Positions 5,781 through 33,521 of a DNA stretch of 64,000 bases are shown here, in pieces. The notes under the pieces are model-generated. The model saw only the letters and a program-made list of their open reading frames with translations. It was not told where the DNA came from and ran no database searches. The translations under genes and the position numbers were made by a program. The number at the start of each line of letters is the position of its first letter. The first letter of the stretch is position 1. Origin of the DNA: Deltaproteobacteria bacterium (GTDB taxonomy: Bacteria; Myxococcota_A; UBA9042; CAIXZC01); assembly GCA_016875215.1 (NCBI GenBank), contig VGRX01000002.1, positions 5,805 through 69,804 of the forward strand, read 5' to 3'.

Positions 5781-5844
5781 CTCCCGTTCCTCCTGATCAA
5801 GCGGAAATCCAAAGTTGCCGGTCTTCTACCGGAATCGGCCCGAA

Positions 5845-12135: not shown

Positions 12136-12667
12136 GATTCCCCCGCCCGTCCTCCTGGTGCTGGGCGTGCTGCACACGGACGAGGCCGCCGCAGAAGCCG
12201 CACTGGCAGCGTTCGTCGAGCGGTTCGGGCCGGTGGAGCGCATGCTGGGGCCGCTGCCGTTCGACTGTACCGACTACTACGACGCCGAGATGGGGACCCC
12301 CATCACCCGGCGGTTCCTCCTGTTCCGGGACCCGGTGTCCGCGGACTGCCTGCCCGAGGTGAAGCTCTTCACCAACGCGATCGAGGAGCGGTTCGCCTCG
12401 GACGGGAAGCGGCGGGTCAACCAGGACCCGGGGCTGCTCACCCCGGTGAACCTGGTGCTGGCCACCGGGAAGCCCCGCCACCAGCGCATCTACCTGGGAC
12501 AGGGGATTTACGGCGATCTGACTTTGGTCTATCATACCGGCGCTTACCAGCCGCTCCCCTGGACCTACAGGGACTGGGGAAGCGAGGAGGTACGTGCCTT
12601 TCTGACCCGGGCCCGCCCCAGGATGACGAGAGCGCTTCAGGGGACCCCGCAGGACAAGGAGATGTGA
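12122..12667 (+). CDS. DUF4416-like small protein, unknown function; translationally coupled to gltX
   Basis: 181 aa from the internal Met ([18 protein letters not shown]...). It overlaps the epimerase stop by 14 nt and the gltX GTG start by 4 nt. The family assignment is made from memory of the conserved N-terminus and is tentative. Confidence 0.5.
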
Positions 12668-14117
12668 TGGTGAGGACTCGAATAGCACCCAGCCCGACCG
12701 GCGACCCGCACGTCGGGACCGCGTACATCGCGTTGTTCAACTACTGCTTCGCACGCAAGCACGGCGGTCAGTTCATCCTGCGCATCGAGGACACGGACCA
12801 GACGCGGTCCGCTTCGGAGTATGAGCAGGCGATCCTCGACGCGCTCAAGTGGACGGGCATCACCTGGGACGAAGGGCCGGACGTCGGAGGCCCTTGCGGT
12901 CCGTACCGCCAGTCCGAGCGGGCAGCCATCTATCGAGAGCACGCACAGATCCTGATCGACAGGGGGCAGGCGTACCGCTGTTTCTGCACGCCGGAGCGTC
13001 TCGAGGAGATGCGCAAGCGGATGGTCGAGGAGAAACGGCCGACCACGGGCTACGACGGCCAATGCAGCCACCTTTCCGAGGCCGAGGTCCAGGAGAAGCT
13101 CTCGGCCGGAGTCCCCTACGTGATCCGTCTGAAGATGCCCCGGGAGGGGGACTCGGTGTTCACCGACCGGCTGCGGGGCGAGATCCGCTACCCCAACTAC
13201 CAGATGGACGACCAGGTGCTGCTGAAATCCGACGGGTTTCCCACCTACCACCTGGCCAACGTGGTGGATGACCACCTCATGGGCATCACCCACGTGATCC
13301 GGGCCGAGGAGTGGATTCCGTCCACGCCCAAGCACGTCCGCCTGTACGAGGCGTTCGGCTGGCAGCCGCCCGAGTTCATCCACATGCCGCTGCTGCGCAA
13401 CCGGGACAAGAGCAAGATCTCGAAGCGGAAGAACCCGACGTCGATCCTGTACTACCAGCGCATCGGCATCATGCCCGAGGTGCTGCTGAACTTCCTGGCG
13501 CTGGTCGGCTACTCGTTCGGCGAGGACCGGGAGAAGTTCACCCTGGCCGAGCTCATCGACAACTTCGACATCGGCCGCGTCAGCCTGGGCGAACCGGTGT
13601 TCGACCTGGCCAAGCTCAACTGGCTCAACGGGCTCTACGTCCGGGCCATGAGCGAGGACGAGCTCACCGACCGCATCGTCGGCAACCTGTACGACCGTGA
13701 CTACATCCGGCGCATCGTGCCGCTGATGCGCGAGCGGATCGAGCGGCTCGACCAGTTCGCGAGCATGACCACGTACTTCTTCTCGGCCGAGCTCCAATAC
13801 GACCCCGCGCACCTGGTCCCCAAGAACACCGCGCCGGGGGTGGCGGCGGACCTGCTCCAGCAGGCGACCGACGAGCTGGACAAGCTGCGGACCTGGGACG
13901 TGGCCTCGCTCGAGCAGGTGCTGCGAACGTTCTGCGAGCGGACCGGGACCAAGCCCAAGATCCTGTTCATGCCGGTGCGAATCGCCGTCACCGGACGTCA
14001 GGCAAGCCCCGGCCTGTTCGAGACCATGGAGGTCATCGGCAAACCCCTCTGCCAGCAGCGGCTGCGGGATGCCGTAAACCACCTCAAGACCCTTGCCATG
14101 GCTCAGGGAGACGAACG

Positions 14118-14121
<4 letters not shown>
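12664..14121 (+). CDS. gltX: Glutamate--tRNA ligase
   Basis: HIGH-type motif [17 protein letters not shown]-like KISKR, and full-length class I GluRS architecture. GTG start. Confidence 0.95.
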
Positions 14122-15848
<1,727 letters not shown>

Positions 15849-15876
15849 GGCGGACAGCGGGGCAGCGGGGCGAGGC

Positions 15877-17619
15877 ATGTCCGACGAGCGCTATGAGGAC
15901 GACACCATTGTTGCAGCGGCGACGCCGCCGGGCAAGGGTGCGGTCGGGATCGTGCGCCTGTCGGGCGAACGGGCCTTCGAGCTGGCCGGCCGGATCCTGA
16001 AGCCGGCTCGGCTGCCGGCCCCCGGCCGCCTGGCCCGCCGAGTGGTGCTGGACCCGGAGCTGCAGCGCCCCCTGGACGAGGCCATGGTGGTCCGGTTCGT
16101 CCACCCGAGGAGCTACACCGGCGAGGACGTGGTCGAGTTCCACCTGCACGGCAACCCGCTGCTCCTGGCCCTGGTGCAGCGACATCTGTGCCTCCTCGGA
16201 GCCCGGCTGGCCTTCCCGGGGGAGTTCACGCTGCGGGCCTTTCTGCATGGCCGAAAGGACCTGGCCCAGGCCGAGTCGGTTGCGGACCTGGTCGAAGCCC
16301 GGTCGTCCGCTGCGATCCTGGCCGCGGCCAGCGGTCTGCTGGGCGACGTGGGCCGGGCCATGGAGCGCCTGGCGCGGCACATGCTGGAGCTGCTGGCCCG
16401 CCTCGAGGCGGAGATCGACTTTCCGGAGGACGTCCCCGAGATGCCGGACGAGACGTTGGGCATTCTGCTGCGGGATCTGGTGGGGGAGCTGGAGGCTCTC
16501 CTCGCGTCCCACGACCGGGCGGCGGTGCTGAAGCACGGTTTCCGGGTCGTGCTGACCGGTCCCCCGAACGTCGGCAAGAGCACGCTGTTCAACGCGCTGC
16601 TTCGCCGGAACCGGGCCATCGTGAGCCAGGAACCCGGGACGACCCGGGACTTCCTGGAGGAGTTCCTGGATATGACGAGGGCAGATCCCGTGCTGGTCGG
16701 GGACCCCTCGACTCCGCTCTCCTCGAGGGGGCCTGTCCTCGACTCTGAGGGACAAGCCCCTCAGGCTCGGACTCGAAGAGAGCGGCCCCCCTCGGGGCCT
16801 GTCGAAGGCGGGCCGGGCGGAGCACCCTCCCCACATGGACCTTCCCGGCACATACCGGTGCCCGAGGTCCCGGTCCTCCTGGTGGATACGGCGGGGCTGC
16901 GGGAGACCGATGGGGACGCGGAGCGCAAGGGGGTCGAGCGCACTCTGTGGCAGCTCGAGCAGGCGGACCTGGTCCTGCTGCTGCACGAGCCGGGCGAAGC
17001 CGAGGACGTTCAGCTTCCGGCCGACAAGGAGGGCAACGTCGTTCCGATCAAGGCTCCGATCTGGCACGTGATGACCAAGTCGGATCGGCTTCCGAGGGCG
17101 GACGAGGCAGGCAGGGCCCGCCCCCGCAACGCCCCAGACAACCGCACCCACGGACCGGACATGCCAGCCCGGCCGGTGAGCATGGCTCCGATCCCGAGGC
17201 AGGGCCTGGGCCCGTTGCGCCTCAGGTCACCGGTTGCCCAGGACAATGCCATCGGGGAGCCTGGCTCGGATCGGACTGTCGTCGCCAGCACGGGCCCCGC
17301 TCCTCGGCGGTTCGCGGTCTCGGCTCTCTGTCACGAGGGGTTGCATGCCCTGAGCTCGGCAATCCGTGCGGAAGCGAGAGAGCGGGCCTACGGCGGTCCC
17401 GAGGACGTCATGCTGGCCGGCGTCCGCCAGTGGCAGGCCGTCCACGAGGCCAGCCTTGCCGTGCGCGAGTGCAGCGCCGGTCTGCCGGGGCTTCCGAGGG
17501 ACATTGCGGCCTCGCTCATCCGGCAGGCCCTGGAGCACATCCACGAAGTCACCGGGAAGAACCCGATCCGGGAGTCGGTCCTCGACTTCATCTTCTCGCA
17601 CTTCTGCATCGGGAAATAG
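15877..17619 (+). CDS. mnmE: tRNA modification GTPase MnmE (TrmE) carrying two long low-complexity insertions
   Basis: N-terminal DTIVAAATPPGKGAVGIVRLSG, G-domain GPPNVGKSTL, and the C-terminal CIGK motif are present. Insertions of about 60 and 90 aa rich in P/G/R lie within and after the G domain. Confidence 0.9.
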   Translation: MSDERYEDDTIVAAATPPGKGAVGIVRLSGERAFELAGRILKPARLPAPGRLARRVVLDPELQRPLDEAMVVRFVHPRSYTGEDVVEFHLHGNPLLLALVQRHLCLLGARLAFPGEFTLRAFLHGRKDLAQAESVADLVEARSSAAILAAASGLLGDVGRAMERLARHMLELLARLEAEIDFPEDVPEMPDETLGILLRDLVGELEALLASHDRAAVLKHGFRVVLTGPPNVGKSTLFNALLRRNRAIVSQEPGTTRDFLEEFLDMTRADPVLVGDPSTPLSSRGPVLDSEGQAPQARTRRERPPSGPVEGGPGGAPSPHGPSRHIPVPEVPVLLVDTAGLRETDGDAERKGVERTLWQLEQADLVLLLHEPGEAEDVQLPADKEGNVVPIKAPIWHVMTKSDRLPRADEAGRARPRNAPDNRTHGPDMPARPVSMAPIPRQGLGPLRLRSPVAQDNAIGEPGSDRTVVASTGPAPRRFAVSALCHEGLHALSSAIRAEARERAYGGPEDVMLAGVRQWQAVHEASLAVRECSAGLPGLPRDIAASLIRQALEHIHEVTGKNPIRESVLDFIFSHFCIGK

Positions 17620-18271: not shown

Positions 18272-18637
18272 GTGGGGGAGGAGATGACAGACTTCGCGAA
18301 CCAGAGGCAGCACGAACGAGTCGACGTACGCATCCGCACCGTCTACCATGACGAGATCGACGCCGATGCCAGCGATTCGCTGATGAGCAACTTGAGTCTC
18401 GGGGGGTGCTTCATCCGCTCCCCCCGGGTGCCGCCGGCCGGCTCGACGCTCCAGGTGAAGTTCAGGCTGCCGGGGAGCGACATCGTGATCGAGGCGACCG
18501 GCACGGTGCGCTGGTCCAAGGGTACGGGTCCGGAAGAGGATCGGGGCATGGGCATCCAGTTCGACCAGATCTCGGCAGAGCACCTCCTGTTGCTCAAGCA
18601 GTTCATCGCGGAACGAATCCAATCCTCCATCTGGTGA
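18272..18637 (+). CDS. PilZ-domain (c-di-GMP binding) protein
   Basis: RxxxR (QRQHERVDVR) and D-x-S-x-x-G (DSLMSNLSLGG) motifs, beta-barrel size of about 120 aa. Confidence 0.8.
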   Translation: MGEEMTDFANQRQHERVDVRIRTVYHDEIDADASDSLMSNLSLGGCFIRSPRVPPAGSTLQVKFRLPGSDIVIEATGTVRWSKGTGPEEDRGMGIQFDQISAEHLLLLKQFIAERIQSSIW

Positions 18638-19911
18638 TGGGACCTGCATTCACGCCCCTTTTCCGGTCGGTCCCGCTTGCGCTGGCGTTGTCTGCGGTGC
18701 TGCCGTCGCTGCCTGCGCTGGCTGCCGGACCGCGCCATGCGGCGGCCGATGAACGTCCGGACGAGTGCAGCCGTGTCACCCGGGAGTATCCTCTCTGGAC
18801 CGAGGAATCGGGGTGCATCGATGCCCCTTGGAATGCCTCGGACCCGGCGGCCGGCACGTTCCCGCTCTACTATGAGCTGAGCCGGCCGAAAGGGCCGTCG
18901 ATTGCCGACCTCATCGTGTTCCACGGCGGCCCCGGCTACCCGCGACGCCACCTGCAGCGGGGGGGGGAGCTCTGGGAATCGCTGAGAGCGCACTGCACGA
19001 TCCTCTACTTCCACCAGCGGGGCTCGGGATTCTCTGCCCGGGTGGCCGACGCATCGGCGCTGGCCGGCCGGGAGGGCCTGTTCACCCTGGACCGGATCGT
19101 GGACGACACGTGGCTGCTTCACCAGGAGCTGCTGGGAGGACACCCGGCGGTGCTCGTCGGGAAGTCCGCAGGCGGGTTCCTGGCGATGAAGTTCGCCCTG
19201 GCCCACCCGGAATCGACCCGCTCGCTCGTGCTGGCAGCCACGAGCCCCCACCACGGCTATATCTCCAGGCGTAACGCGGTCAAGACCGGCTTCTTCCTGT
19301 CGCTGGACGAGCGGTGGCCCGGATTCCTGGCTGCGCTGGGACGGGCCCGTGCGTACCTCGACCGGGCCGACGCAGACGACATCGGTCCGCTGGCCGCACT
19401 GCCCGTCCGGGAAGACCTGCTCGAGTCGATGTTCTTCGACCTGGCCTACACCCTGGACGGACAGTTCGAGATGGTCGCCATGGCCCGCGACCTGGCCGAG
19501 CGTCGCTTCGGCCTCTTCCTGGCCCGGGCCGCTGCCGGCAAGGAGACGCTGCGCCCCACCGGGCTCGAATCGGACGCGGTGCTCAATCTCATCACCTGCC
19601 GGGAGCTCCGCTTCGCAGACGCCAACCCGCTGGCCTGCAGCAACCAGTCGGAAGGGGAGCTCTACGACCTGCGGGACCGCCTGCACGAGCTGTCCGTGCC
19701 GGTGCTGGTGCTCAGCGGGCGGTACGATCCGATCCTCCCCCCGCCGTTCCAGGAGGAGATCGTCCGGAACCTGCCCGGGATGCCCGAATGGCACGTGCTC
19801 GAGCTCTCGTCGCACATGTTGTTCGAGGAGCAGCCCAAGGCCTGCACGGTCTACATCCTGGACTTCCTGGGCATCCCCCGCCAGCAGCTCCCGCAAAGCC
19901 CGGGATTGTGA
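18637..19911 (+). CDS. Secreted alpha/beta-hydrolase (proline iminopeptidase/esterase-like)
   Basis: Signal peptide. HGGPG oxyanion motif, GKSAGG nucleophile elbow, and a C-terminal His region. The start overlaps the PilZ stop in a TGATG arrangement. Confidence 0.75.
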   Translation: MGPAFTPLFRSVPLALALSAVLPSLPALAAGPRHAAADERPDECSRVTREYPLWTEESGCIDAPWNASDPAAGTFPLYYELSRPKGPSIADLIVFHGGPGYPRRHLQRGGELWESLRAHCTILYFHQRGSGFSARVADASALAGREGLFTLDRIVDDTWLLHQELLGGHPAVLVGKSAGGFLAMKFALAHPESTRSLVLAATSPHHGYISRRNAVKTGFFLSLDERWPGFLAALGRARAYLDRADADDIGPLAALPVREDLLESMFFDLAYTLDGQFEMVAMARDLAERRFGLFLARAAAGKETLRPTGLESDAVLNLITCRELRFADANPLACSNQSEGELYDLRDRLHELSVPVLVLSGRYDPILPPPFQEEIVRNLPGMPEWHVLELSSHMLFEEQPKACTVYILDFLGIPRQQLPQSPGL

Positions 19912-19950: not shown

Positions 19951-21354
19951 TCACACCGGCTCGGCCCCCTTGCCGAGCAGCTCCACGCTGCGGGGGCGTT
20001 CGATGCCGCGGTAGCCGAGCACCATGCCGTGTTTCTTCAGCATCTCGTCCCGGAAGACGGGATTGTAGGAGAAGTAGGTGGCCAGGCTCCAGGCATCCTT
20101 CATGTGGGTCTTGCGGTCGCAGGCCCGACGGAAGATGGAGGGGATGGAGCTGTGGCGGCGACGGGCCTCGAGGCACGCCTGGGCCAGCTCGTCGGGCGAG
20201 CAGTTGCGCGGCCGGAAGCCGGGCATGCCGAAGCGGTAGTCGTCGTGGAGCCACCACCTGCCGTCGTACAGCAGCCGCCCTTCCTTCTTCATGCGGGCAT
20301 ACAGCGGGGTGCCCGGGTACGGCATCAGGATGTTGAACGCGGAGAACGCGAACTTCTTGGACAGCGCCCAGTCGCACGTGGCCTTGACGCTTTCGGGCGT
20401 CTCGTTGTCGTAGCCCAGCAGGAACGCTGCCCACAGCATCAACCCGGACCGTCGGATCGCCTCGACCATGGGGTCGTAGGTGTCGAAGCCCAGGTTGCAG
20501 TTCTTCTGCATCTGCACCAGGTTGCGCTGGTCGAGCGACTCGAACCCCACGACCAGCCCCGAGCAGCCGCTCTCGAGCATCAGCTCCATGAACGCCGGGT
20601 CCGCGGCGAACGACAGGTCGGCCTGCCCGAACCAGCGGATCCGCATCGGCCTCAAGCGCCGGAACAGCTCCCTGGCCTGCTCCTTGCTCGCAATGAGGTT
20701 ATCGTCCACGAAGAAGACGAATCGGGCACCGTCCCGGGACAGCTCCCGGACTACCTCGTCCACGGGGCGGCAGCAGTGATGCTGGCGGTAGATGTTGCCC
20801 GTGGCGCAGTACTCGCACTGGTTCACGCACCCCCGGGAGAACTGCGTCAGCCGCACCGGCAGGTATTTTTTTGCGACGAATATGCTCCAGTCGGTGCGGA
20901 TACCGATCAGTTGGGAGGAGTGCGGGTCGGGTGCTCGCCCCCCGAAGCTCCCGACATAACGCCGCCTGAGCCGCCCTTTCTCCAGGTCGGCAAGCAGCGT
21001 TTCCCAGACCGGCTCGGCATCGCCCAGGACGACGGCATCCGCGTGCTCGAGAGATTCGTCGGGGATCAGCGTCGTGTGGAAGCCGCCCAGGACGACGGGG
21101 ATGCCCCGGTTTCGGAAGCGGTCCGCGATCTCGTAGGCCCGGCGGGCCGTGTAGATCTCGGTGTTGATGGCCACCAGGTCCATGTGCTCTTCGAACGGAA
21201 GGCGCTCGAACCGGTCGTCGTACAGGACGGTCTCGTGCTGCGGCGGCGTGATGCCTGCGAGCACGGCGAACGTCAGCGGCTCCATGCGCCCGTGGTCATC
21301 GTAAGGGGCCCCGCTGACCAGCCCCATGTTGGGCTTGATGAACACGATCTTCAT
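19951..21354 (-). CDS. B12-binding radical SAM enzyme (class B, DUF4070-type C-terminus)
   Basis: N-terminal cobalamin-binding Rossmann-like domain, CVNQCEYC (CxxxCxxC) cluster motif, and DUF4070-like C-terminal region. Start MKIVFIKPNMG has GAGG upstream. ATGA overlap with the upstream paralog. Confidence 0.85.
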   Translation of the reverse strand: MKIVFIKPNMGLVSGAPYDDHGRMEPLTFAVLAGITPPQHETVLYDDRFERLPFEEHMDLVAINTEIYTARRAYEIADRFRNRGIPVVLGGFHTTLIPDESLEHADAVVLGDAEPVWETLLADLEKGRLRRRYVGSFGGRAPDPHSSQLIGIRTDWSIFVAKKYLPVRLTQFSRGCVNQCEYCATGNIYRQHHCCRPVDEVVRELSRDGARFVFFVDDNLIASKEQARELFRRLRPMRIRWFGQADLSFAADPAFMELMLESGCSGLVVGFESLDQRNLVQMQKNCNLGFDTYDPMVEAIRRSGLMLWAAFLLGYDNETPESVKATCDWALSKKFAFSAFNILMPYPGTPLYARMKKEGRLLYDGRWWLHDDYRFGMPGFRPRNCSPDELAQACLEARRRHSSIPSIFRRACDRKTHMKDAWSLATYFSYNPVFRDEMLKKHGMVLGYRGIERPRSVELLGKGAEPV

Positions 21355-22739
21355 GACGTCGCCTCGTCGGACAGCGGGGCGGGCGGTTCCGCCTCCCCGT
21401 CGAGGGGCTCCGGAAGCCGGGGTTCCAGGCCGAGCGGCAGACCCTGCTTGGTGAGGATGTCCTGCCGTGAACCGTAGTTCACGAGCAGGTAGGTCAGCAC
21501 ATTGGACGGGCTGGCGAGGTTGGTCCGGCGGTCGAGCATCCGCCTCAGGATCGCGGGGTAGCGGTGCACCCGCTTCCGGATGCCGAACGCCCCCTCGGAG
21601 AGCTGTCGTGCGCTCATCCCGTTCGGCTCGAAGACCACGTCCCCGAAACGATATCGGGGGTCCATCCACCAGCGCTCGTACGTCAGTCGGCCCTCGGCCC
21701 GCAGCCGCCTGTACAGCCCGGTCCCCGGGAAGGGGTTCAGGTGGTTGAAGTTGACCAGGAAGAACTTCTGCTTCAGTGCGAACTCGTAGGTCCTCTCGAA
21801 CACGTCCGGGGTGTCGCCGTCATAGCCGAACACGAACGTGGCATAGATCATGATCCCCTGGTCTCGCACCTTCTCGATGCGGGTCACGTAGTCCTCGGCC
21901 CGGGTCCACCCCTTGCCCATCTGGCGGATGTTGCTCTCGTTGAGGGACTCGAGCCCGACGATGACGCACTGGCAACCGCTGCGGGCCATGAGCCGGAGAA
22001 GCTCGGGGTCGTCCACGAAGTCGAGCGACGTCTGGGCCACCCACCGCTTTCCGAGCGGGGCGATCTCGCGCAGCAGGTCCCTGGCCAGCTCGGGCCTCGC
22101 CGCCAGGTTGTCGTCCGCAAAGAAAGTCCAGCGGTCCGGCGCTGATTCCAGCTCCTCCACGACGTCCCGGAGCGGCCGGTTCCGGGGTTCCTTCGGGTAG
22201 AAGGCATGGACCGAGCAGAAGTCGCACCGGTGCCTGCATCCTCGGGCGAACTGGATGACGTTGACCGGCGCGTACCCCTTGTGGTCGAGCACGTGCGAGT
22301 CGGGCCGGCACAGCGCCAGGTCGGCCGGCTCGTCGTGGCGATACACCCGCTGCAGCTTCCCTCCGCGTAGATCGTCCACGATGCGGGGCCACAGCACCTC
22401 GGCCTCGCCGACGGCCACGCAGTCCGCGTACCGGGCTGCCTCGTCCGGACACTGCGACGGGTGGAATCCGCCCAGCACGACCCTGGCGCCCCGCTTCCGG
22501 AAGGCATGGGAGATCTCGTAGGCCCGGCGGGCCTGGAACGTGCCCACCGACAGTGCGACCAGGTCCCACGGCTCGTCGTAGGGCGGCTCCTCGAAGCGGT
22601 CGTCGAACGCCTTCACCTCGATGTCGGGCGGCGTCAGTCCGGCCAGGATGGCGAGAGCAGTCGGCCGCAGGCAGGTGAGCGACCGCTGCCGCGGCACGCC
22701 ACGCAGCCCCAGTCCCGGCAACCCCAACGCGATTCTCAC
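21351..22739 (-). CDS. B12-binding radical SAM enzyme paralog (CRHRCDFC); GTG start with GGGGAGAGG RBS, alternative ATG at 22778
   Basis: Same architecture as the downstream gene (about 40% identity by eye). An N-terminal alignment with the paralog (MKIVFIKPNMG vs (M)RIALGLPGLG) supports the GTG at 22739. Confidence 0.8.
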   Translation of the reverse strand: MRIALGLPGLGLRGVPRQRSLTCLRPTALAILAGLTPPDIEVKAFDDRFEEPPYDEPWDLVALSVGTFQARRAYEISHAFRKRGARVVLGGFHPSQCPDEAARYADCVAVGEAEVLWPRIVDDLRGGKLQRVYRHDEPADLALCRPDSHVLDHKGYAPVNVIQFARGCRHRCDFCSVHAFYPKEPRNRPLRDVVEELESAPDRWTFFADDNLAARPELARDLLREIAPLGKRWVAQTSLDFVDDPELLRLMARSGCQCVIVGLESLNESNIRQMGKGWTRAEDYVTRIEKVRDQGIMIYATFVFGYDGDTPDVFERTYEFALKQKFFLVNFNHLNPFPGTGLYRRLRAEGRLTYERWWMDPRYRFGDVVFEPNGMSARQLSEGAFGIRKRVHRYPAILRRMLDRRTNLASPSNVLTYLLVNYGSRQDILTKQGLPLGLEPRLPEPLDGEAEPPAPLSDEATS

Positions 22740-22894
22740 GACCCGCCTCTCCCCAACGAGGAACCCCCTCGGGACCATAGCCCGTCCCGCGAAGCGAGTA
22801 AAGGGGAAGCCACTGCACCCCGCCCAATCTCCTTGCAATCCGTAGCGTGCGACTCTATCATCAGCCCGCTTCGCCCGTACGATCCGGAGGGGAG

Positions 22895-23353
22895 ATGGCG
22901 ATTCCGGCAACGACCGTCGAGGTGATCCTGGAGGCAGGGGGGGATTCGAATCCCCTGGCCGTCACCGTGGCGGAGCTGCTTGGCAGGAATGCCCCCCGTT
23001 CCGGCCGCTCGGGGCCGCTGGCCGTGCTCTCGTTCGACGCGGTCGTGGAGGTCCGTGATGCCGGGGCCGACGCACGGGCCTGCACGGTGAGCTTCCAGGG
23101 CCGCCGAATCCGGGTCTACCCGTTCCCGAAGGAGCGCTGCGACGTACGGCTGAGCGTGGACCGGAGCGCCCTGCTGCGGCTTGCCTCTCTGCCGATCTGC
23201 TCCGGGAGACTGCTGCCGTGGACCCGGGCCGCTGCCGGTGCGGCCAGGCTCCTGGCGAGGCCGGGAGTCGCTTCCGGCAGCTTTCCCCGGCTGGTCCAAC
23301 TCCTGCAGGCGCTGTCCGTCGAGGAGCGTACCTGCCCGTTCGTCGGGAGGTGA
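22895..23353 (+). CDS. SCP2-like (sterol-carrier/lipid-binding fold) small protein, tentative
   Basis: About 150 aa. The pattern of short beta-hairpin blocks and a C-terminal amphipathic helix resembles SCP2 domains. GGAGGGG RBS. Divergent from the radical SAM pair. Assignment is by pattern only. Confidence 0.4.
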   Translation: MAIPATTVEVILEAGGDSNPLAVTVAELLGRNAPRSGRSGPLAVLSFDAVVEVRDAGADARACTVSFQGRRIRVYPFPKERCDVRLSVDRSALLRLASLPICSGRLLPWTRAAAGAARLLARPGVASGSFPRLVQLLQALSVEERTCPFVGR

Positions 23354-23357
23354 CCTG

Positions 23358-24035
23358 GTGGCCCGTACGCGCTCTCCTAATCGCCGCGTGCAGATCCTCG
23401 ACACGGCTGCCCTGGTGTTTGCACGCAAGGGCTACCACACTGCGACCGTGTCCGATGTGATCGAGGCTGCCGGCATCGCACGGGGCACCTTCTACCTGTA
23501 CTTCGGCAGCAAACGTGATCTGTTCGCGGAGCTGCTCGACCGTTTCCTGCTGGCGCTGCGCGAGGGGATACGGGCCATCGACGTCACCAGCGACGTCGCG
23601 CCGCTCGACCAGCTCCGCCGGAACCTGGAGCGGACCCTCGATGTCGTGACCCGCCACCGTGCGGAGGCGACCCTCCTGCTCGGCAGCATCGAGGCCCCGG
23701 ATCGGGCGGTGCGGACCCGGGTCGTGGAGTTCTTCTCGGGCATCAAGGAGATGGTGGAGAGCTCCATAGAAACCGGCAAGGCCATCGGGCTGGTACGCGA
23801 CGTCCCTCAGGACCTTGCGGCGCACTTCGTATTCGGGGCAGCCCGGGAGGTGGTCGCCGCGCTCGTCGTCCAGGGCAAGGGGGCCGCTGCCACCGGCAGC
23901 TCGCTGCGCCGCCGCCGTGCCGTGGACATCATCGAACCGCTTCTCGACCTGGTGGCATCGGGCCTGCTGGTCGGCTCGCCCCTGCCGGTCGGGGAACCGT
24001 CATGGAGGGCCCATGTGGCCGACCCCAATGGGTAG
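23358..24035 (+). CDS. TetR/AcrR family transcriptional regulator
   Basis: GTG start with GGGAGGTGA SD. N-terminal HTH (ILDTAALVFARKGYHTATVSDVIEAAGIARGTFYLYFGSK) and a TetR C-terminal helical domain. Confidence 0.8.
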   Translation: MARTRSPNRRVQILDTAALVFARKGYHTATVSDVIEAAGIARGTFYLYFGSKRDLFAELLDRFLLALREGIRAIDVTSDVAPLDQLRRNLERTLDVVTRHRAEATLLLGSIEAPDRAVRTRVVEFFSGIKEMVESSIETGKAIGLVRDVPQDLAAHFVFGAAREVVAALVVQGKGAAATGSSLRRRRAVDIIEPLLDLVASGLLVGSPLPVGEPSWRAHVADPNG

Positions 24036-25626: not shown

Positions 25627-27210
25627 GTGAGCACGAACATGCCGCGTATCGCCCTGCTGGGTTGTGGGAAATGGGGGAGGAACCACGCCCGGGTCCTCCA
25701 CGAGATGGGTTGCCTGGCGCTGCTGTGCGACGAGCGGGCCGAGGCGTTGGAGCAGGTGAAGGCGACCTGTCCCGGCGTCCCGGCGACCACTTCGATCGAC
25801 GAGATCCTCTCGGCACGGCCGGACGGTGTCGTGGTGGCCACGCCGGCTGCCGCGCACGCGGCGCATGCCACCCGGTTGCTCGAGGCCGGCCTGCATGTCC
25901 TGGTGGAGAAGCCGCTTGCCCTGACGGTGGCTGACGGGCGGAGGCTGGTGGCACTGGCGGAGGAGCATCGGCGCGTGCTCGCTGTCGGCCATATCCTCGA
26001 GCACCACCCGGCCCGGCAGCGCATCCGGGAGCTGCTGGCCGAAGGGCGGCTCGGAGCCGTCCTGTCAGCCCGCCTGAATCGCACCGGCCTGGGGACGATC
26101 CGCTCGGTGGAGGACGTGCTGTTCAGCTTCGCACCGCATGACATCGCGTTCGCGCTGGAACTGGGCAGAGGGCTTCCCGTCACCGTCACTGCGGTCGGGT
26201 TCGACCTGTTCGGCAGGGGCATCGCGGACACCGCGGTGATCGTGCTGGGCTTTGCCGAAACAGCGGCCCGTCCCCTGTCCGTCCAGATCACGGTGAGCTG
26301 GCTCGAGCCGAAGAAGGAGCACCGGGCCCTCCTGGTCGGGACCGAGGGGATGCTGGAGTGGAACGACACGCCGGAGGGGCGGGGGATCACGCTGACCCGG
26401 ACGGTGACGGAGCCGGGCACGCCGCCGACGGTCAAGGTCGTGGACAGAGAGAGCATCGACATCCCCGAGGGCGAGCCGCTGCGCCGGGAGCTCGATGCAT
26501 TCGTTCGGGCCATCCGGGAGAACGACCTGGCGGGCCTCTCGGACGGGTCTTCCGGCCTGGACGTACTTGCCGTGCTCGAAGCCTGTGCCCGAAGTGCGAA
26601 GCAGGGGAGGAGGGTCCGGATGGAAGAGGTGACGCGCAACTGGTTCGCGCACGAGTCCGCTGTGGTCCACCCGACCGCAGAGGTCGGCGAGGGGACGAGC
26701 ATCTGGCACTTCTGCCACGTGATGCAGGGCACGCACCTCGGTCGAGACGTCACCATGGGGCAGAACTGCTTCATCGCCAAGGGCGTCAGCATCGGCGACG
26801 GGTGCCGGCTGCAGAACAACATCTCGGTCTACGAAGGGGTGATCCTGGAGGAGGACGTGTTCGTGGGGCCGTCCGCCGTGTTCACCAACGTACGTTTTCC
26901 ACGAGCCTTCGTGTCCCGCAAGTCGGAGTACGAGACCACCCGGGTCTGCAAGGGGGCCACCATCGGCGCCAATGCCACCATCGTGTGCGGCGTGACCATC
27001 GGGGCGCACGCGTTCATCGCGGCCGGCGCGGTCGTGACCAAGGACGTGCCGCCCTACACCCTGGTGGAAGGGGTCCCCGCGGTCAAGTCGCGGCACATGT
27101 GCTCGTGCGGCGAGCGCCTCCCCCGCTCCGACGGCGACGTCCTCACCTGCCGCCGCTGCAAGGCAGCGTACCGCAAGACCCCATCCGGCGTGGCGCCGGA
27201 GAGAAAGTAG
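25627..27210 (+). CDS. Fusion protein: Gfo/Idh/MocA-family NAD(P) sugar dehydrogenase (WbpB-like) + left-handed beta-helix hexapeptide N-acetyltransferase (WbpD/PglD-like) + C-terminal Cys4 ribbon
   Basis: N-terminal RIALLGCGKWG Rossmann motif and Gfo/Idh/MocA C-terminal domain. Residues ~340-500 match the WbpD-type acetyltransferase (IWHFCHV..GQNCFI.. hexapeptide repeats ..GANATIVCGVTIG). Tail CSCG...CRRC. GTG start with AAGGAG SD. Confidence 0.8.
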   Translation: MSTNMPRIALLGCGKWGRNHARVLHEMGCLALLCDERAEALEQVKATCPGVPATTSIDEILSARPDGVVVATPAAAHAAHATRLLEAGLHVLVEKPLALTVADGRRLVALAEEHRRVLAVGHILEHHPARQRIRELLAEGRLGAVLSARLNRTGLGTIRSVEDVLFSFAPHDIAFALELGRGLPVTVTAVGFDLFGRGIADTAVIVLGFAETAARPLSVQITVSWLEPKKEHRALLVGTEGMLEWNDTPEGRGITLTRTVTEPGTPPTVKVVDRESIDIPEGEPLRRELDAFVRAIRENDLAGLSDGSSGLDVLAVLEACARSAKQGRRVRMEEVTRNWFAHESAVVHPTAEVGEGTSIWHFCHVMQGTHLGRDVTMGQNCFIAKGVSIGDGCRLQNNISVYEGVILEEDVFVGPSAVFTNVRFPRAFVSRKSEYETTRVCKGATIGANATIVCGVTIGAHAFIAAGAVVTKDVPPYTLVEGVPAVKSRHMCSCGERLPRSDGDVLTCRRCKAAYRKTPSGVAPERK

Positions 27211-28506: not shown

Positions 28507-30810
28507 CTACTTCCCCTCGATCCACGCGGCGGCCCCCTGGTCCAGGGAGTTCTCGATGATCGCTCGGAAGCCGGCGTAGTCGGGGTGGATGCCGTCCGGG
28601 ATGTGCTCGACGGGCGAGGGATAGGTGAACCAGCCCCCCGGGAAGGGGTCGTATCCCGGGGCCGGGCCCGGGGGGGGCACGACGCCCGGACCGTACGCGG
28701 GGAATCCGAACCCCGGGCACGGGAACGGGAAGTGCGGCGTGTCCCCGAACGTGTACTGCATGATGCCTATGTTGTGCGCGTAGATCATGTCCGGGACAGA
28801 GGCCGCCACCTGGCGTGCCCGGCCGCACAGGTCCACCAGCCCGAGGTTGAACTTCACCCGCTCGAAGCCGGGGAAGCCGTTGCCCAGTGCCTCGATCATC
28901 TCGAAATGGAGGTAGTCATACCCGACCATCAGGATCTTGATGTCGGGCTGCTTGGCCTTGACCAGGGCCACAAAGGTAGCCAGGTCCCACTGGATGAGCG
29001 TCATGGTGATGAACCACTCCAGCCCTCCCATGAGCCCGAGCCCGCTCTTGGCTGCCCCCAGGTAGTCGTTCCCGGTCAGCGTGAAGAACAGGATGTCCGC
29101 CTTGGGTTCCATGCTCATGCTTGTGAAGAGTGCATCCATGAGGGACGGGTTTGAGACCCAGTCCGAGACCTTGGAGCCGGGCTTGGAAGTCAACTCCCAG
29201 CTCACGGTGACTTCCTCGTACCCTCGGGCGACGAGGGCATCCTTGAGGGGGATGATGAGGCCGGAGGACCAACTGTCCCCCGCGAGCACGACCCGGTCGA
29301 CCGCGAGGCACTGCGGGTTCTTGCCCGGGTTGCACTTGCCGCCGCCGCAGTAGTCCCCCTCGGTGCACGGGTCGTTGTCGTCGCACGGGACGTCCAGCGG
29401 CGTGAACACGCACCCCGTTGCCGGATCGCAGGTGTCCTGCGTGCAGAAGTTGGAATCGCCGCAGACGATCGGCTGGCCGATGCACTTGCCCATGGCGCAG
29501 ATGTCGTCCTTGGTGCAGGCATCATGGTCGTAGCAGGGCGTCCCGGTCAGCGGCTGGTTGGAGCACCCGGTGAGCGGGTTGCAGGAATCCTGAGTGCAAT
29601 CGTCGCCGTCGTCGCAGCTTACCGGCTTGCCCGCCTTGCAGGCCCCCTGGTAGCACTTGTCGCTTGCCGTGCATGCGTTGCCGTCGCTGCACGGGAATCC
29701 CGGCGGCTGCGTGTGGATGCACCCCCCCTCGAACGTGCAGGAATCCAGCGTGCACTGGTTCCCATCGCTGCAGCTTGCGCTCTGCCCCATGCATGCGCCT
29801 TCCACGCACAGGTCGTTCTCGGTGCACTCGTTTCCATCGTTACACATGGTGCCGTCCGCGGGCGGATGCTGGCAGCCGGCCAGAGGGTCGCACACGTCCT
29901 GGGTGCACGGGTTGCCGTCGGTGCAGGCCGTAAGCGTACCGGTGCACTGACCCGCGGCGCAGTGGTCATCCCCGGTGCAGACCGAGCCGTCGTCGCACGG
30001 CTTCCCGGTGAGCTGGGTGAACACGCAGCCGACCGCGGGGTCGCACGCATCGCTGGTGCAGATGTTGCCGTCCTCGCAGGTCACCGGCTCTCCGATGCAG
30101 AGCCCCTGGTCGCACGTGTCCAGCGAAGTGCACGCGTCGTCATCGCTGCACGGCTGGCCCGTGCCCGGGGAATGCGTGCACCCGGCAAGCGGATCGCAGC
30201 CGTCCACCGTGCAGCCGTCACCGTCGTCGCAGAGCACGGCCTGTCCGTAGCATTTCCCGGACAGGCACTGGTCCGACCCGGTGCAGGCGTTGCCGTCGTC
30301 GCATGGGTTGCCGGTGAGCGGGACCGGGGCGCATCCCGTGTCCGGCTGGCACGCTACGGTGGTGCAGGGATCCTCGTCCTCTTCGCATTCGACGGGATCT
30401 CCGATGCACTCTCCCTTGGCGCAGGCATCGCTCAGGGTGCAGGCATTGCCGTCGTCGCAGGCGGTCCCGTCGTCCCGGTCCTGCTCCTCGCACCTTCCTT
30501 CGATGCAGGCCCACCGGCGGCAGGGCCCCAGCACCTGCCCTGCGGCAGCGCATCCCTCGTCGCCGACGCACAGCTTGCCGTCGAAGGTCAGCTCCGGCAG
30601 GAACGGCTCGTCCCGCCCGTCCACCCGGACGAGATCGGGTTCGACCCAGCCGCCGTCCGCGTCTCCGCCCGCCTGGCGCACGTCACCGGCCGGTCCCCGC
30701 AGGTCGGCACGGGGTCCCACGTCGGAAGCCCCGCCGGTCCCCGTCCCCCCGCACGCAACCAGCAGCGCTGGGATCCAAGCCGCAAAGAGGAATGGCAGGC
30801 GCAAACTCAT
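28507..30810 (-). CDS. Lipoprotein: N-terminal DGNxCTxDxC Cys-repeat array + C-terminal SGNH/GDSL-type hydrolase domain
   Basis: Internal start MSLRLPFLFAAWIPALLVACGG. About 11 Cys repeat modules. VVLAGDSWSSG (GDS block I), GNDY, and DGIHP (catalytic DxxH). Confidence 0.75.
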   Translation of the reverse strand: MSLRLPFLFAAWIPALLVACGGTGTGGASDVGPRADLRGPAGDVRQAGGDADGGWVEPDLVRVDGRDEPFLPELTFDGKLCVGDEGCAAAGQVLGPCRRWACIEGRCEEQDRDDGTACDDGNACTLSDACAKGECIGDPVECEEDEDPCTTVACQPDTGCAPVPLTGNPCDDGNACTGSDQCLSGKCYGQAVLCDDGDGCTVDGCDPLAGCTHSPGTGQPCSDDDACTSLDTCDQGLCIGEPVTCEDGNICTSDACDPAVGCVFTQLTGKPCDDGSVCTGDDHCAAGQCTGTLTACTDGNPCTQDVCDPLAGCQHPPADGTMCNDGNECTENDLCVEGACMGQSASCSDGNQCTLDSCTFEGGCIHTQPPGFPCSDGNACTASDKCYQGACKAGKPVSCDDGDDCTQDSCNPLTGCSNQPLTGTPCYDHDACTKDDICAMGKCIGQPIVCGDSNFCTQDTCDPATGCVFTPLDVPCDDNDPCTEGDYCGGGKCNPGKNPQCLAVDRVVLAGDSWSSGLIIPLKDALVARGYEEVTVSWELTSKPGSKVSDWVSNPSLMDALFTSMSMEPKADILFFTLTGNDYLGAAKSGLGLMGGLEWFITMTLIQWDLATFVALVKAKQPDIKILMVGYDYLHFEMIEALGNGFPGFERVKFNLGLVDLCGRARQVAASVPDMIYAHNIGIMQYTFGDTPHFPFPCPGFGFPAYGPGVVPPPGPAPGYDPFPGGWFTYPSPVEHIPDGIHPDYAGFRAIIENSLDQGAAAWIEGK

Positions 30811-33521
30811 CGGACATCTCCACGAATCGCCACGGACCGGCGACGCCCGGCGGACACTCGCATCAACACGGCCAGGGCGGCCAGCAGAAGCACGATCCCC
30901 CTGCCCTTGGCGGAGCCCGTCGCCGCACACCCGCCAGAGGCTTTCGGCTGCGTCACCACATCCTCCACCGGTCCGGCCACCTCGGGCTGGATGTCGATGG
31001 ACTCGTCGCTTTCCACCGCGGTCGGTGCGAGGCGGCAGGTCCCTTCCAGGCAGGTACCGGAGAAGCCGTTCAGGAAGCAGTAGTCGCCGTCCGGGAGCGG
31101 CTCGTACAGGCACTTCCCCGCGACCGGGTCGCAAGTCCCCGCGTAGCAGGGGCTGTCAGGTGCAGGGCACTTCAGGGGAGCGGTCACACACTCGCCCGTC
31201 ATGCAGTAGTCGAGGCCGGTGCACGGGTCACCGTCGTCGCACGGGCCGAAGTCGTCGATGGGGGTCGAAACGCACCCCTTGGCCGGGTCGCATTCCACCT
31301 TCACGCACGGACCATCCTGCTCGTCCGGCTTGCACAGGAGCGGCTTTCCCGGACGGCACCGCGAGAGCACGCACGTCTCGATGCCGTCGCACGGGTTGCC
31401 GTCGTCGCAGTCGGAATCCTCGTCGCACCCCGGCATCTGGAGGCTCGGATCGCCGTACAGGTTGAACTCGAGGCGGACCTTGAAGGTCCACGGCTGTACG
31501 CCGAGCCCCAGCGTCCCCATCGCGTAGTGGAAAGCCTCGGCAATCGGGCGCTTCTCCACGGCGGCCGCATGCGTGAAGTAGACACCCAGGGTGAATGCCC
31601 CCGGCGTGAACGGAGAAGGAACCCAGTCCTCATCCTGTCCCGGAGTCAGCCCCATCGTGATCCGGGTCGACGCCACGTTGGCAATGGACGCGTGCTGGAG
31701 CAGCGAGTGCGTGAGGTTTCCATGCTCCTCCGGGCAGGCGGTCAGGCACGACCCCTGGAAGACGATCGGGGGATAGTCATCCGTCCCGACCTTGTGGAAC
31801 AGGATGTTGATGAATGCCGGCTCCTCGGTCTCCCCCTGCTGCGGCAGTCCGTCCTCGTTGGCATCCACGTACCAGATGTCCCGGCAGGCGAGGTCGAAGT
31901 TGCCGTGGGCGCTCCATGTGACGGCTCCGTACCCCTTGTTCCAGTACTCGGGCATCTTCGACTCGTCGAGGAAATCGTCACCCGGATACGTGGAGGTCAG
32001 GTTGCCCGCCCACTCCCCGAGCACCGTATGCCCGTTGCCGTAGACATCCAGCGACTTCTCGATCAGGAACTTCGACACCAGGCTCCCGTCCACCCATCCC
32101 CCGTCCGGGAAGGTGATCATCGGGCTGGGAAGCAGCACCCGGTTGTGCCACGGCAGCGGCTCCGACTGTTCGTACGCGATGATCCTCTCGAGGATGCCGT
32201 CGCCGTAGAACGGCTGCTTCCCGAAATGGGGGATCCGCCCCACCAGCAGCTCCGGTGCCAGGTCGACCCCGTCGAGCCGGTCCCCGCTCCGGTCTGCGCC
32301 GCCATCGAATCCCCCCTCGGCTCCGCTGCCGCCCGCTTCGCCTTCGCCCTGGAATTCCTCGGGGATCTCCATGTAGTCCTCGAGCTCGCACGGCATCTCG
32401 TCGCCGTCGGGGTTCCAGTTCCCCGTGAGGTCCGCGAAGTACATGTCGGTCGCCACGTGCGGGTAGTCGAGGATCTCCTCGTATCCGAACGAGGGATAAC
32501 AGAGCTTCATCGGAATCCCGAGCGGGTCGTGCGGGTCAGGCGACCCGAGCAGCACCAGGTATTTGAAGCCGGCCTCCTGGTAGTGCTTCTGGAGCCACGC
32601 CCGCAGGATGTCGGGCTGTTCCTCGGGTGCGGGCTCCACCGCTTCCATCTCCTCGTCGATCTGCTCGAGTGTAACGAGCAGCGGCGTGTAGCCCTGGGAC
32701 TTCTTGAAGTCGATGAAGGTGGATAGCATCTTGCTGGTCGACGCAAACTGCTCCCGGGTTACGATCACATAGTCGGTCATCCCGTCTTCCCGGGGGGCCG
32801 GGGCGTACCATTTCGCAACGTCCGAAGCGTTGGTTGCAAGCCGGGTCATCCGGTCGGGCAGGAAGTGGCCGCGGTCCGGGCGGGGGGCTCCGCTCCGGTC
32901 GACCTGCACCCGCACCGAGAAGCGGCCGCAACGCTCCCAATGACCGTCCTGCACTCGGAGAAGCCGCAGCAGGAGCGGGAGCAGCAGCGCATCCCCCTCG
33001 TGGAGCAGAGGGGAGGTGAAGAACGGCGATTCCCCGGCTCGAGACGTGACCGGCCGGGCAGGAAAGGAGGAGTCCGATTGCGATGCCGCTTGCGATTCCG
33101 ATTGCGATGGCGAATCCGACGCCGCCTCCGACTTCGCAATGTGGTCCGGGATCCGCCCATGCCCCGAGGCTTCGGCGCGGCGGGCGGGCAGAGGCATGGG
33201 GCGGCCGTCGAACAGGGAGATCAGCGTGGCATCGTCCGCGACCGGGGGCTTGGCGGGGTGGCAGTCGGATGGCTCCACCGTCACGACGGGACGGCCCCGG
33301 GTATCGGGGGGCAGGAGCAGGAGGAGGGGATAGCCCTCGCCCGCACCCAGAGCAGCCGGGAGGCGATGGATTCGGTTCCAGACCGCGCCGGGGGCCGAAT
33401 CGCCGGCTGCCGCGGTCCCAAGGTCGATCCGGACCACGATCTCCTCGGCCCGGCCCGTCGTGCCGGCCAGTGCCAGCAGCAACCCGACCAACGCACCGAC
33501 CGCCCCACGCGCGCGCATCAC
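30807..33521 (-). CDS. Gingipain-like cysteine peptidase (family C25) with Cys-rich modules and C-terminal MYXO-CTERM
   Basis: Signal peptide. C25 catalytic region (WSAHGNFD His, FQGSCLTA Cys). C-terminus ASGGCAATGSAKGRGIVLLLAALAVLMRVSAGRRR. ATGA overlap with the downstream SGNH gene. Confidence 0.75.
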   Translation of the reverse strand: MMRARGAVGALVGLLLALAGTTGRAEEIVVRIDLGTAAAGDSAPGAVWNRIHRLPAALGAGEGYPLLLLLPPDTRGRPVVTVEPSDCHPAKPPVADDATLISLFDGRPMPLPARRAEASGHGRIPDHIAKSEAASDSPSQSESQAASQSDSSFPARPVTSRAGESPFFTSPLLHEGDALLLPLLLRLLRVQDGHWERCGRFSVRVQVDRSGAPRPDRGHFLPDRMTRLATNASDVAKWYAPAPREDGMTDYVIVTREQFASTSKMLSTFIDFKKSQGYTPLLVTLEQIDEEMEAVEPAPEEQPDILRAWLQKHYQEAGFKYLVLLGSPDPHDPLGIPMKLCYPSFGYEEILDYPHVATDMYFADLTGNWNPDGDEMPCELEDYMEIPEEFQGEGEAGGSGAEGGFDGGADRSGDRLDGVDLAPELLVGRIPHFGKQPFYGDGILERIIAYEQSEPLPWHNRVLLPSPMITFPDGGWVDGSLVSKFLIEKSLDVYGNGHTVLGEWAGNLTSTYPGDDFLDESKMPEYWNKGYGAVTWSAHGNFDLACRDIWYVDANEDGLPQQGETEEPAFINILFHKVGTDDYPPIVFQGSCLTACPEEHGNLTHSLLQHASIANVASTRITMGLTPGQDEDWVPSPFTPGAFTLGVYFTHAAAVEKRPIAEAFHYAMGTLGLGVQPWTFKVRLEFNLYGDPSLQMPGCDEDSDCDDGNPCDGIETCVLSRCRPGKPLLCKPDEQDGPCVKVECDPAKGCVSTPIDDFGPCDDGDPCTGLDYCMTGECVTAPLKCPAPDSPCYAGTCDPVAGKCLYEPLPDGDYCFLNGFSGTCLEGTCRLAPTAVESDESIDIQPEVAGPVEDVVTQPKASGGCAATGSAKGRGIVLLLAALAVLMRVSAGRRRSVAIRGDVR

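Follow-up and report, generated by a model that had tools for sequence, protein, structure and literature searches.

Among the hardest reactions in biology are those catalyzed by radical S-adenosylmethionine (SAM) enzymes of class B, and most subfamilies within this class have no known substrate. A stretch of 64,000 nucleotides (nt) from contig VGRX01000002.1 of an uncultured Deltaproteobacteria bacterium (positions 5,805 to 69,804 of the forward strand; hereafter, the window) encodes on its minus strand two adjacent proteins of this type, here designated rSAM-A and rSAM-B (A and B), and thereby raises the question of what two such enzymes do side by side, and upon which molecule. Gene structure, sequence motifs, fold, orthology, conserved coupling, and the existence of conserved or fused partners in other genomes identify A and B as two intact radical SAM genes of the class B fold. 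The features composing the pair are as follows.

19951..21354, minus strand: rSAM-B, a clade-B B12-domain radical SAM protein of 467 amino acids (aa), recognized by Pfam, motif and AlphaFold model
21351..22739, minus strand: rSAM-A, a clade-A B12-domain radical SAM protein of 462 aa from GTG 22739, recognized by Pfam, motif and clade clustering
21351..22778, minus strand: rSAM-A as read from the alternative start ATG 22778, 475 aa
21351..21354, minus strand: ATGA junction, read from the sequence, at which the TGA stop of A overlaps the ATG start of B by 4 nt

A translationally coupled pair of paralogous genes

The GC content of the window is approximately 0.67 and raw lists of open reading frames (ORFs) are therefore crowded; third-position GC values of 0.83 and 0.88 mark the two minus-strand genes as real, and the overall GC content of the pair is unremarkable. 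An earlier note on this DNA, made from the sequence alone, had described a pair of paralogous genes sharing a 4-nt ATGA overlap, and both parts of that description are borne out: the junction lies at 21351-21354, with a GAGG sequence approximately 8 nt upstream of the B start, and the two proteins show 40% identity in an alignment of 466 residues (E = 8e-114), a similarity so far beyond chance that the two are evidently true paralogues. The start of A requires revision. Both the earlier note and public gene calls place it at ATG 22778. Because the starts of A orthologues (n = 8) align at M/V-R-I-A-L, corresponding to GTG 22739, and because a Shine-Dalgarno sequence (GGAGAGG) is located 6 nt upstream of that codon, GTG 22739 appears the likelier of the two.

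Domain architecture and predicted fold

Measured against Pfam cutoffs of 29.5 bits for Radical_SAM (PF04055), 32.1 for B12-binding, 22 for DUF4070 (PF13282) and 21.3 for SCP2 (PF02036), both A (66.6 bits) and B (46.4 bits) belong to the radical SAM superfamily. Each protein contains exactly one CxxxCxxC cluster motif, as had been noted previously: CRHRCDFC at residue 181 of A and CVNQCEYC at residue 176 of B. The AlphaFold2 model of B, derived from 30 orthologues, is of high confidence (predicted local distance difference test score, pLDDT, 88; predicted template-modelling score, pTM, 0.89) and comprises a beta-alpha-beta domain at the N-terminus, followed by a partial barrel and by helices at the C-terminus. 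When compared with the PDB using Foldseek, this model yields full-length matches to AprD4, TsrM, MgmA, CysS, OxsB and TokK (E = 5e-18 to 4e-11). Judged from these full-length matches, the predicted architecture is that of a B12-domain (class B) radical SAM enzyme with an N-terminal Rossmann-like domain. The N-terminal cobalamin-binding domain that the earlier note ascribed to each protein thus stands in part: A narrowly exceeds the Pfam B12-binding cutoff (32.9 vs 32.1 bits), and B is recognized by its fold, its Pfam score being sub-threshold.

The classical DxHxxG cobalamin motif was found in neither A nor B by sequence scan; to our knowledge, the solved cobalamin-dependent radical SAM enzymes likewise lack it. 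There is thus no sequence signature for cobalamin, and, as AprD4 illustrates, the fold alone is no proof; A and B may bind and use this cofactor. Across the four clades of the family described below, 43 positions are conserved, 40 of them as an identical residue; approximately 19 of the 43, including a GGxH motif, lie in the N-terminal domain, and the cysteine triad of the cluster motif is invariant. Together, this N-terminal conservation and the cysteine triad shared by all clades argue for a working cofactor site. No cysteine set suited to an auxiliary cluster is conserved in the alignment of any of the four clades.

The C-terminal region had been likened to DUF4070, a resemblance that does not hold at the Pfam threshold. 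Isolated C-terminal pieces score 13.6 (A) and 15.0 bits (B) against PF13282, covering model positions 1-58 and 1-39 of 144, respectively, and the full-length proteins have no match to this model at E <= 0.01; a few distant homologues carry a weak precomputed match.

Comparison with curated families

Searches of NCBIfam produced solely generic superfamily matches for A and B (20-84 bits vs cutoffs of 250-775), to the BchE, HpnJ, ladderane-type, PhpK, MJ_1487, MgmA-type, HpnR, AprD4 and TsrM families, and sequence matches within the PDB are equally remote. The two proteins score 80.9 and 66.9 bits against BchE (TIGR02026; cutoff 481), 76.9 and 84.2 against HpnJ (578), 54.9 and 37.4 against HpnR (650), 70.6 and 76.1 against PhpK, representing the PhpK/Fom3-type P-methyltransferases (600), 72.1 and 62.8 against the ladderane-type lipid B12 radical SAM family (TIGR04072; 360), and 40.6 and 64.8 against ApyD (750). 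Similarly distant are the matches to TsrM (21.4 bits, B only, vs 500), to AprD4 (45.7 vs 500) and to TIGR03975, a family of C-methyltransferases acting on ribosomally synthesized and post-translationally modified peptides (RiPPs; 28.1 vs 282), and PADLOC returned no match to a defence system. With every family cutoff failed, the A-B pair appears on these scores to belong to none of the families tested, and the Pfam and NCBIfam scans revealed no placement in a characterized family of the kind that the earlier note had named as speaking against its account.

Genomic context provides no pathway partners for the families above. Among the scanned ORFs, which cover the window apart from 33.5-35.5 kb and 46.1-47.5 kb, there are no cobalamin, tetrapyrrole or hopanoid genes, and no acyl carrier protein or Fab genes adjoin the pair. 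The previous statement that precursor-peptide, tetrapyrrole and hopanoid genes are missing nearby holds for these ORFs, and so for most of the window.

The published record is similarly silent. A 2026 review of lipid-modifying radical SAM enzymes covers only Tes, Mss, Gms, GrsA/B, Gmm, Cds, HpnH/J/P/R, Jaw5 and ladderane candidates, and contains nothing like the A-B pair (PMC13459092). Literature searches recovered no description of the A-B cluster, nor of any heteromeric cobalamin radical SAM enzyme. The earlier claim that this subfamily has no assigned substrate is therefore supported both by NCBIfam scores that fall far below every cutoff and by the absence of the pair from the review.

Conservation of the A-B pair

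Relatives of B were examined in 80 loci from more than 10 phyla, in which ORFs were called and all proteins clustered; clades were delimited by average-linkage clustering of the radical SAM alignment. B itself has a counterpart of 100% identity in a public 'Deltaproteobacteria bacterium' metagenome-assembled genome (MAG), and among species-level genomes an uncultured Myxococcales MAG comes closest (88% identity). Of the two proteins B is the better conserved, as it is within the family as a whole, retaining 55-62% identity in Riflebacteria, Verrucomicrobia, Spirochaetia and Holophagaceae, and an exhaustive search for matches to B at E <= 1e-30 recovered 1,487 clusters at 50% identity. Among the carriers of the cluster are culturable strains, namely Leminorella grimontii ATCC 33999, in which it occupies approximately 63-84 kb of NZ_AUUA01000015.1, Peptoclostridium litorale DSM 5388 and Butyrivibrio sp. 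NC2007.

The 80 loci hold 258 copies of the radical SAM family, arranged 2-5 in tandem per locus, which fall into clades A (62 copies), B (77 copies), C (45 copies) and D (40 copies), together with two small Firmicutes clades that replace A. Identity ranges from 0.49 to 0.57 within clades and from 0.32 to 0.42 between them. An A-B pair was defined as a clade A gene followed by an adjacent clade B gene, with a junction that overlaps or lies within 20 nt; the two window proteins cluster in clades A and B, in this order and with such a junction. The same A-then-B adjacency is found in 59 of the 80 loci and in many phyla. A 4-nt overlap is the modal state of these junctions (39 of 59), some overlap is present in 46, and all but 2 lie within 20 nt. 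Because overlap recurs at most A-B junctions across phyla, the translational coupling of A to B is an old and conserved trait and no local accident. From the single overlap in the window the earlier note had deduced co-expression and probably sequential action; co-expression and joint action gain strong support from this recurrence of order and overlap.

Gene order within the wider family is modular, with 'A B', 'D C X' and 'Y GH3' as recurring units (X, Y and GH3 being partner proteins described below). Two A-B pairs are present in the Ozemobacteraceae MAG AMR_MDS_1066 (L033 and L046), the first isolated and the second clustered with C, X and Y, and because a single MAG holds both a lone and a clustered copy, this suggests that the pair duplicates or moves as a unit. 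A candidate A-B fusion (P0029, 709 aa, from a Logan contig of 2,533 bp) was ruled out as a frameshift artefact: it consists of an A-like N-terminus, approximately 100 out-of-frame residues, and then an intact B start (MRILFIKPNMGL...).

Partner genes in the wider family

In 35 loci the sequence extends 7 kb or more to either side of the pair; the complete set of C, D, X, Y and GH3 is present in 19 of these and part of it in seven, whereas nine have the pair without any of these partners. The GH3 partner is a member of the GH3 acyl-acid amido synthetase family (159 bits) with a weak match to the lyso-ornithine-lipid synthetase OlsH (36 bits vs a cutoff of 620), a bacterial GH3 enzyme that forms N-acyl ornithine from fatty acids and ATP (PMC12493201). 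X (~372 aa) belongs to no Pfam family, and its profile weakly matches GNAT in both halves. Y (~243 aa) has more than 5,000 database matches, all 'hypothetical', and is covered by no Pfam or NCBIfam model; a profile search of PDB sequences found nothing, and its GNAT fold is revealed solely by a predicted structure (pLDDT 93.5) that has a C-terminal extension and resembles NatD, AAC(2') and AtaT (E ~3e-6). Some loci add a protein of the fatty-acid-desaturase family (FA_desaturase), a weak, sub-threshold PAP2-like protein, an anchored protein resembling DUF4440, and a small membrane protein. Examples of Y, and of a methyltransferase considered below, are located as follows.

L075:2613-3341, L086:1967-2680 and more than 30 other loci: Y (proteins P0240-P0359)
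L001:8934-9872 and L087:6957-7871, minus strand: class I methyltransferase of the closest relatives, divergent from A

Natural fusions provide a further connection between these genes. GH3 is fused to A in a protein of 1,007 aa from a Verrucomicrobia MAG (JAPLUI010000315.1, L006:6981-10004), and C is fused to X in proteins of 816-817 aa from two independent cluster representatives (P0367 and P0393). These fusions connect the radical SAM proteins with enzymes of acyl activation and acyl transfer.

The composition of the locus varies among relatives. In the closest relatives (80-85% identity) the pair occurs alone, and its divergent neighbour is a class I methyltransferase; a relative with 69% identity has a like methyltransferase and a third B12 radical SAM gene nearby, and in a relative with 59% identity C, Y, D, A and B are accompanied by two thioesterases beside B. 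The best NCBIfam match of the methyltransferase is phthiotriol dimycocerosate methyltransferase (158 bits vs 300), and it scores 150 bits vs 400 against the fatty-acid O-methyltransferase Mtf2, both of these being mycobacterial lipid O-methyltransferases. By tblastn, the window contains no PLD, thioesterase, relatives' methyltransferase or relatives' 236-aa protein.

Surroundings of the pair in the window

The genes flanking the pair differ from those described above, and consist of a convergent block downstream of B and a divergent operon upstream of A.

18637..19911, plus strand: alpha/beta hydrolase of 424 aa, convergent, 39 nt from the end of B (Abhydrolase_1, 65.8 bits)
22740..22894, no strand assigned: divergent intergenic region between A and the SCP2-like-TetR operon, with presumed promoters
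22895..23353, plus strand: ORF of 152 aa, context only, with a sub-threshold SCP2 match (PF02036, 16.1 vs 21.3 bits), called in the public assembly
23358..24035, plus strand: TetR-family regulator of 225 aa, context only, a candidate local regulator (TetR_N, 61.8 bits)

The TetR gene begins 4 nt after the 152-aa ORF, and in NCBIfam its product comes closest to FadR, a regulator of fatty-acid genes (69 vs 200 bits). The earlier note had drawn its link to lipids from these two neighbours, a connection that the data do not support in this form: the SCP2-like match is sub-threshold, and neither gene is found beside the pair in the closest relatives (80-85% identity). The intergenic region contains one sigma-70-like site (plus strand, 22833-22861), in a scan for promoters and terminators that performed near chance, and no inverted repeat or TetR operator was found between A and the SCP2-like ORF. 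An Rfam search of both strands of the whole 64 kb produced no family at gathering score, and hence no tRNA, cobalamin riboswitch or other known RNA.

Downstream of B, and convergent with it, lie the alpha/beta hydrolase, a PilZ protein, mnmE, glnS and gltX. The hydrolase was considered as an OlsI-like partner and rejected; because a relative with 85% identity keeps it with PilZ and MnmE, with three other genes between it and B, it belongs to the flanking synteny block and not to the pair. Within this block, gltX (GluRS-type) and glnS (GlnRS-type) form a tandem (12664-15848, plus strand) with a 4-nt overlap at 14118-14121, and mnmE follows directly. The mnmE ORF (15811-17619, plus strand) would encode approximately 570-600 aa, compared with 465 aa in the 85%-identity relative, and its Pfam G-domain match spans residues 245-397 for just 89 model positions, which suggests either that the GTPase domain contains an insertion or that the ORF is read too long.

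Beyond TetR are genes encoding a HEAT-repeat protein, a 212-aa protein without assignment, and a 527-aa fusion of a GFO/IDH/MocA sugar dehydrogenase with a hexapeptide acyltransferase (25627-27210, plus strand), the halves of which resemble UDP-GlcNAc 3-dehydrogenase and NeuD/LpxD-type transferases, enzymes of the kind that make diamino sugars. Side by side on the minus strand (28507-33521) are two genes of very large size, encoding a Peptidase_C25 protein (gingipain-type, ~900 aa) and a protein with six Dictyostelium-CTDC repeats, an unusual family for a bacterium. A PlsB-type acyltransferase is encoded 16 kb away. The remaining ORFs that were scanned have housekeeping or unrelated functions, their products including a redoxin, CstA, kinases, an epimerase, CTP synthase, a sulfatase and large secreted proteases.

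Proposed function and alternative explanations

Taken together, these data lead us to put at about even the chance that A and B share a single substrate, an amphiphile derived from a fatty acyl group, on which they would most likely perform cobalamin-dependent C-methylation or a related radical reaction. Under such a mechanism, A and B would both be catalytically competent, would be made together from one mRNA by translational coupling and would act on the same molecule, either sequentially or as an A-B complex. Each enzyme would cleave SAM at its [4Fe-4S] cluster to generate a 5'-deoxyadenosyl radical that attacks an unactivated carbon, and the N-terminal domain would hold cobalamin for methyl delivery or assist in a related C-C or rearrangement reaction. 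Most likely, the molecule acted upon would be a fatty acid, a fatty acyl thioester or an N-acyl amino acid, and the window module may operate alone on an endogenous lipid-type metabolite or together with C, D, GH3 and GNAT proteins encoded elsewhere. From the available data we infer cobalamin use, methylation, substrate class and complex formation alike. In the case of the substrate, several independent, individually weak pointers appear to converge: a fatty-acyl-type molecule is suggested because the methyltransferase of the close relatives resembles Mtf2 and the phthiotriol enzyme and the TetR regulator of the window resembles FadR, and because the pair of more distant relatives sits with GH3, GNATs, desaturase-family and PAP2-like proteins, and thioesterases.

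A number of observations weigh against this proposal. B falls below the Pfam B12-binding cutoff (26.0 vs 32.1 bits). AprD4 is a B12-domain enzyme that works as a dehydratase and is not known to need cobalamin, and since this protein is the best structural match of the modelled B, the predicted fold proves neither cobalamin use nor methylation. The matches to Mtf2, FadR, SCP2, OlsH and PAP2 all lie below curated cutoffs. None of C, D, X, Y and GH3 is present in the 64-kb window, in which tblastn found A and B only, so that the full cluster (A, B, C, D, X, Y and GH3) is not represented there. Loci of the Butyrivibrio type carry at their start, in place of GH3 and Y, a Trp/Tyr-type (aromatic-amino-acid) permease, which could mean that the substrate is an amino acid. 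Lastly, the literature and databases searched contain no characterized member of the family.

Some of these observations are accommodated by radical chemistry other than methylation, namely dehydration, desaturation, cyclization or ring contraction, as in AprD4, BchE, GrsA/B, OxsB and HpnJ, with an N-terminal domain that perhaps lacks cobalamin or does not use it as a methyl carrier. We regard this, the main rival, as somewhat unlikely. Most characterized class B enzymes are methylases, the presence of four or five paralogues per cluster resembles known multi-methylation pathways, and the strong conservation of the N-terminal domain in four clades is unlike that of a decayed cofactor site. The affinities of A and B nevertheless lean the other way, as AprD4 is both the top structural match and a sequence match of B, the best NCBIfam matches (BchE and HpnJ) are not methylases, B is sub-threshold for the B12-binding domain, and GrsA and GrsB, the lipid enzymes with a B12 domain covered by the review, catalyze cyclization (PMC13459092); against this, the supporting matches reflect generic superfamily similarity, far below cutoffs.

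Improbable, in our estimation, is that the substrate is an amino acid or small polar metabolite modified on its side chain, and that the GH3 and GNAT proteins found elsewhere conjugate it to an acid, with any lipid part serving just as carrier. The structural relative TsrM methylates free tryptophan, and the Butyrivibrio-type permease would agree with such a substrate. GH3 enzymes do join an acid to an amino acid (PMC12493201). The permease is limited to one lineage, however, and no amino-acid transport or biosynthesis gene lies beside the window pair, while the desaturase-family, PAP2, membrane and thioesterase partners, along with the Mtf2-like methyltransferase, point to acyl chains.

Maturation of a RiPP by C-methylation, as performed by PoyB/PoyC or ApyD-type enzymes, seems very unlikely even though multi-paralogue sets of B12 radical SAM enzymes are known from RiPP clusters and weak NCBIfam matches to ApyD and RiPP C-methyltransferases exist, for these scores are far below cutoff. 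A precursor gene would not fit into the approximately 155 nt that precede A or the 39 nt that follow B, and a search of the 80 loci for conserved small ORFs yielded only alternative-frame artefacts inside one Riflebacteria gene; nor is a protease, transporter or recognition domain found near the window pair. Scarcely credible, finally, is a role in modifying tRNA, rRNA or the translation apparatus. The idea arises from the presence of gltX, glnS and mnmE 2-7 kb downstream of B on the opposite strand, a block that also lies near the pair in the 85%-identity relative, and it fails because this synteny is local and convergent: it is confined to the closest relatives, where three unrelated genes interrupt it, it is absent in all other phyla, and its orientation permits no operon.

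Beyond joint action on a fatty-acyl-derived amphiphile, a bolder extension may be imagined, one that we think has little probability. Here, A and B would form an obligate hetero-oligomeric cobalamin radical SAM enzyme, constituting the universal core of a widespread pathway that would also employ C, D, GH3, two GNATs and sometimes desaturase-family and PAP2-like proteins, and whose product would be an N-acyl amino-acid lipid bearing several C-methyl groups or tailored by radical chemistry in some other way.

Comparison with characterized systems

By analogy, the pair is most like sets of paralogous B12-domain radical SAM enzymes that tailor one substrate stepwise, such as GrsA/GrsB, ThnK/TokK and CysS. 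GrsA and GrsB are two paralogous B12-type radical SAM enzymes that act successively on the same lipid (PMC13459092). Compared by description, they differ from A and B in that they are archaeal ring synthases of glycerol dialkyl glycerol tetraethers (GDGTs), functioning as cyclases, and are not described as translationally coupled; no NCBIfam or Pfam link connects them with A or B. AprD4 (PDB 6fd2) has the same three-part architecture as B, of which it is the best structural match (template-modelling score 0.66, E = 5e-18), and the two also match in sequence (E = 2e-11). The proteins are nonetheless only 17% identical, and AprD4 is a radical SAM diol dehydratase acting on an aminoglycoside, whereas the window contains no aminoglycoside genes.

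TsrM, CysS, TokK/ThnK and MgmA share the fold of B (E = 8e-17 to 4e-11). Several of these enzymes methylate unactivated carbons, some repeatedly, and paralogues can share a cluster. They differ from B in sequence (12-19% identity) and in their C-terminal domains, and their contexts are also different, comprising thiopeptide, cystobactamid, carbapenem and methyl-coenzyme M reductase systems. HpnP, HpnR, HpnJ and BchE, B12-domain radical SAM enzymes acting on hopanoids or tetrapyrroles, provide the top NCBIfam matches by E-value, but at 55-84 bits these fall well short of cutoffs of 481-650, and neither hopanoid nor bacteriochlorophyll genes are present among the scanned ORFs.

With the OlsH/OlsI ornithine-lipid pathway, the wider family shares its clustering with GH3, to the point of fusion in one MAG; differences lie in the low OlsH score of the cluster GH3, the absence of GH3 from the window, and the absence of a radical SAM enzyme from the OlsH paper (PMC12493201). 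Lastly, Mss, Tes and Gms are radical SAM enzymes with which anaerobes modify fatty-acyl or isoprenoid tails, and the phylum distribution reported for Mss overlaps that of the A-B family. In its original paper, Mss was delimited by homology to Tmari_0825 of T. maritima or WP_129545148.1 of T. ethanolicus (e <= 1e-50, >= 30% identity). By description Mss may nevertheless be distinct, as an auxiliary-cluster mechanism has been postulated for it (PMC13459092), whereas A and B have no extra conserved cysteines.

Significance

Viewed in isolation, the window is modest, offering a stand-alone A-B module in the genome of an uncultured member of the Myxococcota, and its value is that of an entry point to a widespread uncharacterized cluster. 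The pair is no one-off: it is the constant core of a cluster found in more than 10 phyla, and the conserved coupling of A and B, together with the GH3-A and C-X fusions, provides testable hypotheses concerning partners and substrate class. If the product proves to be a new tailored acyl-amino-acid or fatty-acyl lipid, the cluster would add a pathway for bacterial membrane or signal lipids, and possibly a source of biomarkers. Should the bolder proposal of a radical-tailored N-acyl amino-acid lipid be true, such a molecule could explain some of the orphan branched lipids of anoxic environments.

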